Virus genome (UHGV): UHGV-0072739 | Source of the DNA: a virus | Length of the DNA: 19,762 bases | Reading direction: 5' to 3' (one strand) | In this document: piece after piece, positions 3,312 through 5,641 of the stretch | Layout of the letters: every line of letters begins with the position of its first letter | How positions within the stretch are numbered: the first letter of the stretch is position 1 | Position numbers and translations under genes: made by a program | The notes under the pieces: generated by a model | Databases searched by the model: none | Told to the model about the DNA's origin: nothing | The model's input: the letters and a program-made list of their open reading frames with translations, nothing else

Positions 3312-3512
3312 TCAGGCAGCCTTGTTATTCTGTTTACCAAGTTCTCTGGCAATCATTGCCGTCGTTCGTATTGCCCATTTATCGACATATTTCCCATCTT
3401 CCATTACAGGAAACATTTCTTCAGGCTTAACCATGCATTCCGATTGCAGCTTGCATCCATTGCATCGCTTGAATTGTCCACACCATTGATTTTTATCAAT
3501 AGTCGTAGTCAT
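3312..3512 (-). CDS. 66-aa Cys-containing protein, possible Ral-like restriction-alleviation protein
   Basis: ORF track; four Cys arranged C-x5-C-x2-C-x5-C; same length as lambda ral and, as in lambda, preceded by a 28-codon ORF; the assignment is positional and from memory. Confidence 0.5.
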   Translation of the reverse strand: MTTTIDKNQWCGQFKRCNGCKLQSECMVKPEEMFPVMEDGKYVDKWAIRTTAMIARELGKQNNKAA

Positions 3513-3582: not shown

Positions 3583-3692
3583 ATATCACCTCAAATAAGT
3601 GGTTTGCTGCCTAATTTCATTTTCTGGCGACCAACACAAGTCACACCCATTTCACTGCGTGGCTTGCGGTAGTAAATTAGGTTTGTTCAGAC

Positions 3693-3715
3693 AATAAAAA
3701 ACCCACCGAAGTGGG
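3693..3715 (-). terminator. Rho-independent terminator (reverse strand), tL1-like, directly after ORF 3716..4060
   Basis: Stem CCCAC/GTGGG with a CGAA tetraloop, followed on the reverse strand by TTTTTTATT; begins 1 nt after the stop codon. Confidence 0.55.
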
Positions 3716-4060
3716 CTATGACCATTTTTTATTTGGATTTCGTTGGTGAGCGTGATTAACAACTCTGTGCATTACATCCTCATATTTTTCATCTTCAATT
3801 TTTTCGACATCGCGAGGAAATGGTGTTGCTAATGCTTTGTCAACTTTGTCCATTGGGTCTTCATTAATCTTATATTCAGGGCCATCATCTATAGCATTAA
3901 ATCCAGGTGTTACACCGTTTTTTAATGCATATGCTATCCTTTTTTCCCATCTCGCTATTCTCCTCCTGTCTCGAGATGTAAGACCTCTATCAGATACTTT
4001 TCTGTTTTGTCCGCGGTCAGGATTAACATAAATAGTCTTTTTCACCATAAGCATACTCAA
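3716..4060 (-). CDS. Hypothetical basic protein (about 110-114 aa) co-transcribed with N, upstream of the first early-left terminator
   Basis: ORF track; TTG at 4060 with in-frame ATGs at codons 3 and 5; start region overlaps the N stop; Arg/Lys-rich stretch TSRDRRRIARWEKRIAYALK; no family recognised. Confidence 0.55.
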   Translation of the reverse strand: MSMLMVKKTIYVNPDRGQNRKVSDRGLTSRDRRRIARWEKRIAYALKNGVTPGFNAIDDGPEYKINEDPMDKVDKALATPFPRDVEKIEDEKYEDVMHRVVNHAHQRNPNKKWS

Positions 4061-4362
4061 TAAGCACCGTACGGTAGTTTACTGTACAATTTTATTTTTT
4101 GGACTGCATGTATTTTGTTTCCTAATGGGTTTGAATCTTTGTAATAAATACTTCTATTTTTTCGAACGACTTCTTCTTTCTTCTTGCAGCAAAGGCTTCC
4201 TAGCGATGCTGCTTTGTCTGCTCTGACGCAACCAGAGAGCTTTAGCGCAATTTTTCGCGCCAGTGCTTCATTACTGCGTCGCTCGGCAATAAGTTCTGCT
4301 CTGCGAGCTTTGTAGCGGCTTTTTGCCGTACCTTTGGATTCTTTCCAGACAATGGTTACCAT
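4057..4362 (-). CDS. N: N transcription antiterminator, phage-21 type
   Basis: Start at the second Met of the track ORF (MVTIVWKESKGTAKSRYKARRAELIAERR...) with AAGGAG 6 nt upstream; the arginine-rich motif GTAKSRYKARRAELIAERR matches the phage-21 N boxB-binding peptide as I recall it; sits directly downstream of nutL. Confidence 0.8.
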   Translation of the reverse strand: MVTIVWKESKGTAKSRYKARRAELIAERRSNEALARKIALKLSGCVRADKAASLGSLCCKKKEEVVRKNRSIYYKDSNPLGNKIHAVQKIKLYSKLPYGAY

Positions 4363-4472
4363 GATGGTCTCCTTTAAGTGGCTTTGGCGCATGACGCGTC
4401 GAGGTGCTTATCTTCTCGATCGCTGTCTTGCAGCTGCAATTCGCGCCATCCCCAAAACCACTCAAGTTCTGG

Positions 4473-4513
4473 TCTCAACGGTTAGGTTGAGAGTCCGTCG
4501 ATGTTAAAGAGCC
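4473..4513 (-). promoter_or_regulatory. nutL: boxA (reverse-strand GGCTCTTTAACA, 4502-4513) and boxB hairpin (4473-4492, stem UCUCAAC/GUUGAGA, loop CUAACC)
   Basis: boxA is close to the CGCTCTT(T)A consensus; the 7-bp stem and 6-nt loop lie 9 nt downstream; both sit between pL and N. Confidence 0.6.
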
Positions 4514-4558: not shown

Positions 4559-4587
4559 AATTTAAGACTTCTTAATTTATTGGTCAA
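4559..4587 (-). promoter_or_regulatory. pL-like early leftward promoter with overlapping operator palindrome
   Basis: Reverse-strand TTGACC, 17-nt spacer, TAAATT; the spacer contains the palindrome TTAAGA-N2-TCTTAA (plus 4562-4575), the same motif found in the oR region. Confidence 0.4.
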
Positions 4588-4649: not shown

Positions 4650-4678
4650 GGGAAATAAAAAAGGGGCGAAAGCCCCTT
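4650..4678 (-). terminator. Rho-independent terminator at the end of cI (reverse strand)
   Basis: Stem AAGGGGC/GCCCCTT with a GAAA tetraloop overlapping the cI stop codon, followed on the reverse strand by TTTTTTATTT. Confidence 0.55.
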
Positions 4679-5598: not shown

Positions 5599-5641
5599 TT
5601 GCTCTTTAACAGTTCTGGCCTTTCACCTCTAACCGGGTGAG
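5599..5641 (+). promoter_or_regulatory. nutR: boxA (TTGCTCTTTAACA, 5599-5611) and boxB hairpin (5623-5640, stem UCACCU/GGGUGA, loop CUAACC)
   Basis: boxA consensus followed 11 nt later by a hairpin with the same loop as the nutL boxB but a different stem; located just after cro. Confidence 0.65.

Follow-up and report, generated by a model that had tools for sequence, protein, structure and literature searches.

The window analysed here is a stretch of 19,762 nucleotides from the virus genome UHGV-0072739 and contains the immunity region of an imm21-type phage, as the original prediction, made from the letters of the DNA, had recognised; the repressor is identical in 216 of 216 residues to the repressor of phage DE3 imm21. 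Between the repressor stop and a pL-like promoter (4559..4587, minus strand; TTGACC, 17 nt, TAAATT) lies a strong terminator hairpin (AAGGGGC-TTTC-GCCCCTT and a T run; 4661-4678, minus strand), and both promoter and hairpin are identical in DE3 imm21. The promoter is followed by a nutL site of the phage-21 type (4473..4512, minus strand) with boxA GCUCUUUAACA (4512-4502) and a boxB that folds as UCUCAAC-CUAACC-GUUGAGA (4492-4473). A nutR site of the same type is present on the plus strand (5600..5641) with boxA TGCTCTTTAACA (5600-5611) and a boxB hairpin (5622-5641), whose loop is again the hexaloop CUAACC. The pL-nutL region is identical to that of DE3 imm21 in 313 of 314 positions and nutR in 114 of 115.

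Downstream of nutL follows the gene for a phage-21-type N antiterminator (4057..4362, minus strand; 101 codons from the annotated start ATG 4362, within a maximal open reading frame 4057..4392), which matches PHROG 271 with E=1e-31. This N is 79% identical to the N of DE3 imm21, the N-terminal ~60 residues being the same in both. Directly behind it, where the original prediction had placed it, is an open reading frame of maximally 114 codons beginning with TTG 4060 (3716..4060, minus strand), the subject of this analysis, which we identify below as nun.

The coding sequence of nun is likely 3716..4048 on the minus strand (110 codons and the stop codon TAG), because three sources agree on ATG 4048 as the start: the homologues with 54-67% identity begin with M-[AK]-KK-T aligning to this codon, the revised HK022 record lets nun start at the equivalent position, and chain N of PDB entry 6ALG is the same protein, as started from ATG 4048, minus its Met. 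An in-frame alternative is ATG 4054 (112 aa), the start chosen by PGAP and in the mEp235 record. The same three sources speak against the start at TTG 4060, which was set aside. Only with TTG 4060 does the gene overlap the N stop, as had been stated; from ATG 4048, on sequence grounds the likely start, it begins 8 nt past the N stop at 4057. The protein, which had been described as basic and rich in Arg and Lys, has indeed a computed pI of 9.65 overall, but it is tripartite: both ends are basic (pI 11.5 for the N-terminus, 11.0 for the C-terminus), and the middle is acidic (pI 4.3).

The original prediction recognised no family for this protein and called it uncharacterised. It is HK022 Nun with one substitution. 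The product is identical in 108 of 109 residues to chain N of 6ALG (E=2.5e-71), which is the cryo-EM structure of a Nun-arrested elongation complex of E. coli (PMC5386594), and in 26 of 26 residues to chain B of 1HJI, an arginine-rich peptide named NUN-PROTEIN, which was solved on lambda boxB RNA according to Faber et al. (2001), as cited in PMC5386594. PHROG 5632, "Nun-like transcription termination factor," matches over profile positions 1-112 of 112 with E=4.8e-71. The protein is 99% identical to the Nun of HK022, O276 and mEp235, the sole change relative to HK022 being S11R (PDB numbering), outside both functional segments, and megablast against phage records gave 96.8% DNA identity to HK022 nun, the ~115 bp upstream included. 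The gene carries the name Nun in the records of mEp235, mEpX1, HK022, HK75 and O276. We conclude with a probability of about 90% that the open reading frame is nun, the orthologue of the transcription termination (arrest) factor of HK022, located in an imm21 prophage, where a phage-21-type N immediately precedes it.

The profile search that had been suggested as a check thus returns an answer in PHROG 5632 and the PDB, Pfam and NCBIfam being silent: scans of the frame with Pfam, NCBIfam and PADLOC matched no family, and specifically no Ral, anti-restriction or defence family. Nor did any of the N profiles match (PHROG 271; Pfam PF25694 and PF11438), while the upstream gene does match N. RefSeq/PGAP gives the label "hypothetical protein" to Nun (WP_000930321.1) as well as to the phage-21-type N (WP_000256573.1) (3716-4362; L004), as would be expected when Pfam and NCBIfam have no model; PADLOC has no Nun model either. 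A textbook protein has in this way been left "hypothetical" in RefSeq, with PHROGs and the PDB as the only resources to identify it.

The only role described for Nun is to keep superinfecting lambda out of the lysogen, which it does by arresting RNA polymerase on lambda nut transcripts (PMC4496710; PMC5386594). The arginine-rich motif binds lambda nut RNA and competes with lambda N for boxB (PMC5386594), and the C-terminus, which enters the elongation complex, prevents translocation at pause sites shortly beyond nut (PMC5386594, PMC4496710). NusA, B, E and G stimulate the arrest and Mfd frees the arrested complex (PMC5386594, PMC4496710). HK022 phages mutated in nun show normal lytic growth and lysogenisation, and no other function of the protein has been described (PMC4496710).

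Both functional segments are intact in the window. The arginine-rich motif DRGLTSRDRRRIARWEKRIAYALKNG, encoded by 3914..3991 (minus strand), would be a lambda boxB binder, as judged by the sequence identity to 1HJI; its core DRRR.ARW.K is invariant among the homologues with 54-67% identity. The C-terminal segment HRVVNHAHQRNPNKKWS (3719..3769, minus strand) should, from what is known of HK022 Nun, enter the RNA polymerase elongation complex and block translocation. H93, R94, N97, H98, H100, R102, K106, K107 and the penultimate aromatic residue W108, which were tested or found in contact (PMC5386594), are all present in the alignment to 6ALG chain N, and the C-terminal motif is kept throughout the family as well as in a second subfamily (see below).

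Upstream of nun, within the last codons of N, lies a sequence corresponding to the promoter PNun (4081..4109, minus strand), with -35 ATGCAG (4109-4104), a 17-nt spacer and -10 TACAGT (4086-4081). The record of O276, an HK022/lambda hybrid (MH547045), annotates the -35 and -10 of a "nun gene promoter," and hexamers and spacer are identical in O276 and the window. The depositor of that record, R. A. King, is presumably the King who heads the author list of the nun-promoter paper from 2000. By its title, King et al. (2000), as cited in PMC5386594, is about how a repressed prophage constitutively expresses nun and about the promoters that transcribe the gene; within what that citation conveys, the activity of PNun is established for HK022 only, and an estimate of ~100 nM Nun is drawn from the same work. 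A scan for the generic sigma-70 consensus did not detect PNun, which scores poorly against the consensus, and a scan that misses it cannot argue for or against the promoter.

At its other end nun runs directly into an intrinsic terminator (3690..3717, minus strand): the stop codon TAG (3718-3716) leads into a hairpin of seven pairs with a UUCG loop (3717-3700; AGCCCAC-UUCG-GUGGGUU), which is followed by UUUUAUUG within a T-rich tail (3699-3690) containing a run of six T, with a folding energy of -10.3 kcal/mol. The strong terminator that had been predicted right after the frame is therefore there. Its stem reads CCCAC/GTGGG in the window and CCCGC/GCGGG in HK022, a compensatory pair change; its position is retained in most relatives, and strong hairpins stand at the same place 3' of the Nun-like gene of a Citrobacter braakii contig (L009) and of the pair of Nun-like genes of a metagenome-run contig (L007), both described below. 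The terminator of nun is eroded in phage PA28 (GGTGGG changed to GATAGA, L006 2580-2625), where no stem folds.

A scan of the minus strand from the pL-like promoter (4587-4559) to the nun terminator found no further terminator-like site. Since the stretch from pL to the end of the frame is free of predicted terminators, immediate-early expression of the gene together with N from pL, as originally proposed, fits the sequence; what the proposal missed was a constitutive prophage promoter of the gene's own, for which the identity of the PNun hexamers to the O276 annotation speaks. From its sequence nun looks like a self-contained cassette of promoter, gene and terminator that would also be co-transcribed with N from pL. 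The variants of PA28 and of Stx1a-converting phages with an eroded terminator hairpin indicate that such a tight cassette is not universal.

No lambda boxB was found within 3 mismatches anywhere in the window. Lambda imm21 hybrids reportedly escape exclusion by HK022 Nun, an observation ascribed to Robert et al. and the year 1987. The carrier phage should escape its own Nun, because Nun is tethered by lambda boxB (PMC5386594, PMC4496710) and the window contains none. Sequence identity, conserved motifs, promoter hexamers, terminator and nut types are established at this locus.

From the work on HK022 we infer promoter activity, lambda exclusion and self-immunity also for the phage in the window, and propose that its Nun would work as follows. 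In the repressed prophage the weak constitutive promoter inside the last codons of N would give rise to a short transcript that stops at the hairpin right after nun, yielding a low level of Nun in the lysogen. When a phage with lambda-type nut sites enters, the arginine-rich helix of Nun would bind the nascent boxB of nutL and nutR in competition with lambda N, and the C-terminal segment HAHQR..KKW would insert into the elongation complex and block translocation, aided by NusA, B, E and G. Early lambda transcription would be halted just past nut and the incoming phage excluded, the carrier being spared by its nut sites of the phage-21 type. Upon infection or induction of the carrier itself, nun would also be co-transcribed with N from pL, and polymerase modified by N would pass the terminator behind nun and go on to transcribe ral and the recombination genes.

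Among 5426 complete E. coli genomes, 218 contain a 491-bp segment comprising nun and its promoter and 213 a 711-bp segment comprising N and nun, each counted at a query coverage of at least 80% by the segment. With 213 genomes for N plus nun and 218 for nun, nearly all natural copies of nun sit behind a phage-21-type N, and the layout of HK022 is the rare one. What the window contains is thus an HK022-type Nun in its common N-linked context, which is real but already known. That about 4% of complete E. coli genomes have a lambda-specific exclusion gene matters for the use of lambda-derived vectors and phages on wild strains.

The last ~38 codons of N in the window (~4060-4175, minus strand) correspond to the DNA upstream of nun in HK022 (L001 2859-2975). 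HK022, which is without N, retains there a relic of 38 codons that is 97% identical to the C-terminus of N in the window, the stop codon TGA being changed to TGG. Since the ~115 bp that HK022 and the window have in common upstream of nun are the 3' end of N in the window, PNun lies in the coding sequence of N or in its relic. The literature that could be searched contained no mention of the N relic in HK022, nor did it yield anything relevant on phages with both N and Nun or on the Nun of mEp235 and mEpX1. It is conceivable, though we would rather bet against it, that nun normally belongs behind a phage-21-type N, that HK022 represents a derived layout, and that Nun made from pL could hit co-induced prophages with lambda-type nut sites and not only defend the lysogen. 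If so, expression from pL would supply Nun whenever such a phage infects or is induced, and the protein might be offensive too, e.g. in Shiga-toxin polylysogens.

The tight linkage could also be read to mean that in phages having both N and Nun the latter acts on the carrier's own transcription, for instance by damping or timing N-dependent read-through, rather than on foreign phages. A position directly behind a phage-21-type N in ~98% of the E. coli occurrences would then be no accident, and Nun has an affinity of ~300 nM for elongation complexes without boxB (PMC5386594). The arginine-rich motif is, however, residue for residue that of the peptide solved on lambda boxB, the boxB of the carrier has a different stem and the CUAACC hexaloop with no lambda-like boxB beside it, HK022 Nun plays no role in the growth of its own phage (PMC4496710), and the embedding of PNun in the 3' end of N can explain the linkage. 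We hold this action on the carrier to be very improbable, and exclusion of phages with lambda-type nut sites stays the preferred function.

Very improbable, too, is the function that had been proposed at the outset, an immediate-early protein made with N for host takeover or anti-defence, such as restriction alleviation. The frame does belong to the pL transcript, in which no terminator is predicted ahead of the end of the frame, and Nun does target the host RNA polymerase; overproduction of Nun is toxic (PMC4496710), by which the toxicity assay suggested with the prediction is already answered in the literature. But the product is one residue away from the well-studied HK022 Nun, whose mutants grow and lysogenise normally and for which lambda exclusion is the only role described (PMC4496710; PMC5386594), PADLOC, Pfam and NCBIfam offer no other family, and ral is a separate frame, the next one, past the terminator. 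RefSeq, in annotating an identical prophage, assigns this ral, the first gene after the nun terminator (3312-3512, minus strand), to the antirestriction Ral family. Anti-restriction in this operon thus lies behind the nun terminator and is presumably N-dependent.

Conservation of the frame, absence or interruption of which in relatives was to count against the prediction, is borne out. A tblastn search found a full-length homologue in 29 of 30 phage records, and the pair of N and the frame is 98-99% identical at the DNA level in mEp235, mEpX1, Kapi1 and PDP110P1 and 90.6% in PA28 and Stx1a-converting phages. The cluster of Nun at 90% comprises 556 member sequences on 860 contigs. To judge by the comparison with HK022 nun, with 8 nucleotide differences in synonymous codons and 1 in a non-synonymous codon, the gene is under purifying selection. 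That nun is a decaying passenger without current function in this prophage, as occasional frameshifted or truncated alleles might suggest, can practically be dismissed, given a frame intact here and in those 29 records, a main cluster of that size, mostly synonymous changes and functional motifs invariant down to 54-67% identity. Of the rare alleles P0002, P0010, P0012 and P0020, one duplicates seven residues in the arginine-rich motif (RIARWEK twice), and three (P0010, P0012 and P0020) have frameshifted or truncated N- or C-termini. In PA28 a 1-nt deletion lengthens N by ~11 codons across the start of nun (L006 2922-2968), and the intact nun frame has been left unannotated in the GenBank record of this phage.

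More distant Nun-like proteins, with 61-65% identity, are encoded on the Citrobacter braakii contig (L009) and the metagenome-run contig (L007) already mentioned. Right before these Nun-like genes (L007 3855-3935, L009 450-530) is a sequence ~90% identical to putL, the annotated antiterminator RNA of HK022, which extends the pairing of put and nun to Citrobacter and other enterobacterial prophages. Rfam holds no family that matches these putL-like sequences: at the gathering threshold there was no match in the window, HK022, L007 or L009, so that put and nut RNAs go unrecognised there. On the Citrobacter contig a relic of the C-terminus of N (ERKNHRTWYKDANPFGNKIHAVQKSRGKSTPLI, L009 959-1060) comes downstream, past the nun-like gene and the terminator of that gene; in HK022 the relic lies on the other side of nun.

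On the metagenome-run contig a second Nun-like open reading frame of 97 aa (L007 4324-4617) overlaps the end of the preceding Nun-like gene, the two forming a tandem pair. The 97-aa product carries the C-terminal motif of Nun (VNHAHQRRPDKKWS) and a different arginine-rich N-terminus. About 480 nt further downstream of the two genes is an N with an arginine-rich motif of the lambda type (MDAQARRRERRAEKQAEWKAAN), preceded by a GC-rich, strongly folding spacer (both within L007 4640-5440); a lambda-like boxB was not recognisable in this phage, in which putL, a double Nun with a lambda-like motif in one copy, and a lambda-type N occur together.

The 97-aa frame defines a second, small Nun-like subfamily of 14 clusters (P0021-P0034), of which the two named by source are from Klebsiella and Enterobacter. 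Its C-terminal motif is VNHAHQRRPxKKWS, and its conserved arginine-rich N-terminus, KDNSKNRRYKxRGELIAKRKAE, is faintly like the motif of phage-21 N. A tblastn search of the phage collection with this subfamily gave no match. These proteins may be a Nun aimed at another type of nut. Taken together, the sequences suggest a Nun family in which one constant module for arrest may be combined with RNA-recognition modules that can be exchanged.

Among the known systems HK022 is the closest. The two Nun proteins agree in 108 of 109 residues, with arginine-rich motif and C-terminal arrest segment identical, the hexamers of the annotated promoter stand upstream of both genes and a terminator is found in the same place. 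They differ in S11R and in the compensatory pair of the terminator stem and, above all, in their surroundings: HK022 has no N gene, uses put RNA and has nun in the place of N, whereas in the window nun follows a complete N, and N and nut sites alike are of the phage-21 type. The order N-nun is the same in mEp235, mEpX1, vB_EcoP_Kapi1, PDP110P1, PA28 and Stx1a-converting phages, with 90.6-99.1% DNA identity over 851 bp; of these, PA28 and the Stx1a phages differ by seven amino-acid changes, a 1-nt deletion that carries N over the start of nun, and the eroded terminator.

With lambda N and phage-21 N, Nun has in common that all are small proteins with an N-terminal arginine-rich helix acting on the boxB of nut RNA together with Nus factors. 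The N proteins bring about antitermination and Nun arrest, the C-terminal parts are unlike, and the two kinds of protein fall into different families, the N antiterminators into PHROG 271 and Nun into PHROG 5632. Lambda rexAB and sieB are likewise accessory genes beside the immunity region that are expressed from the repressed prophage and protect the lysogen against other phages. Compared with these, Nun has a uniquely narrow target, transcripts with lambda nut sites, and acts by arrest of transcription (PMC4496710).
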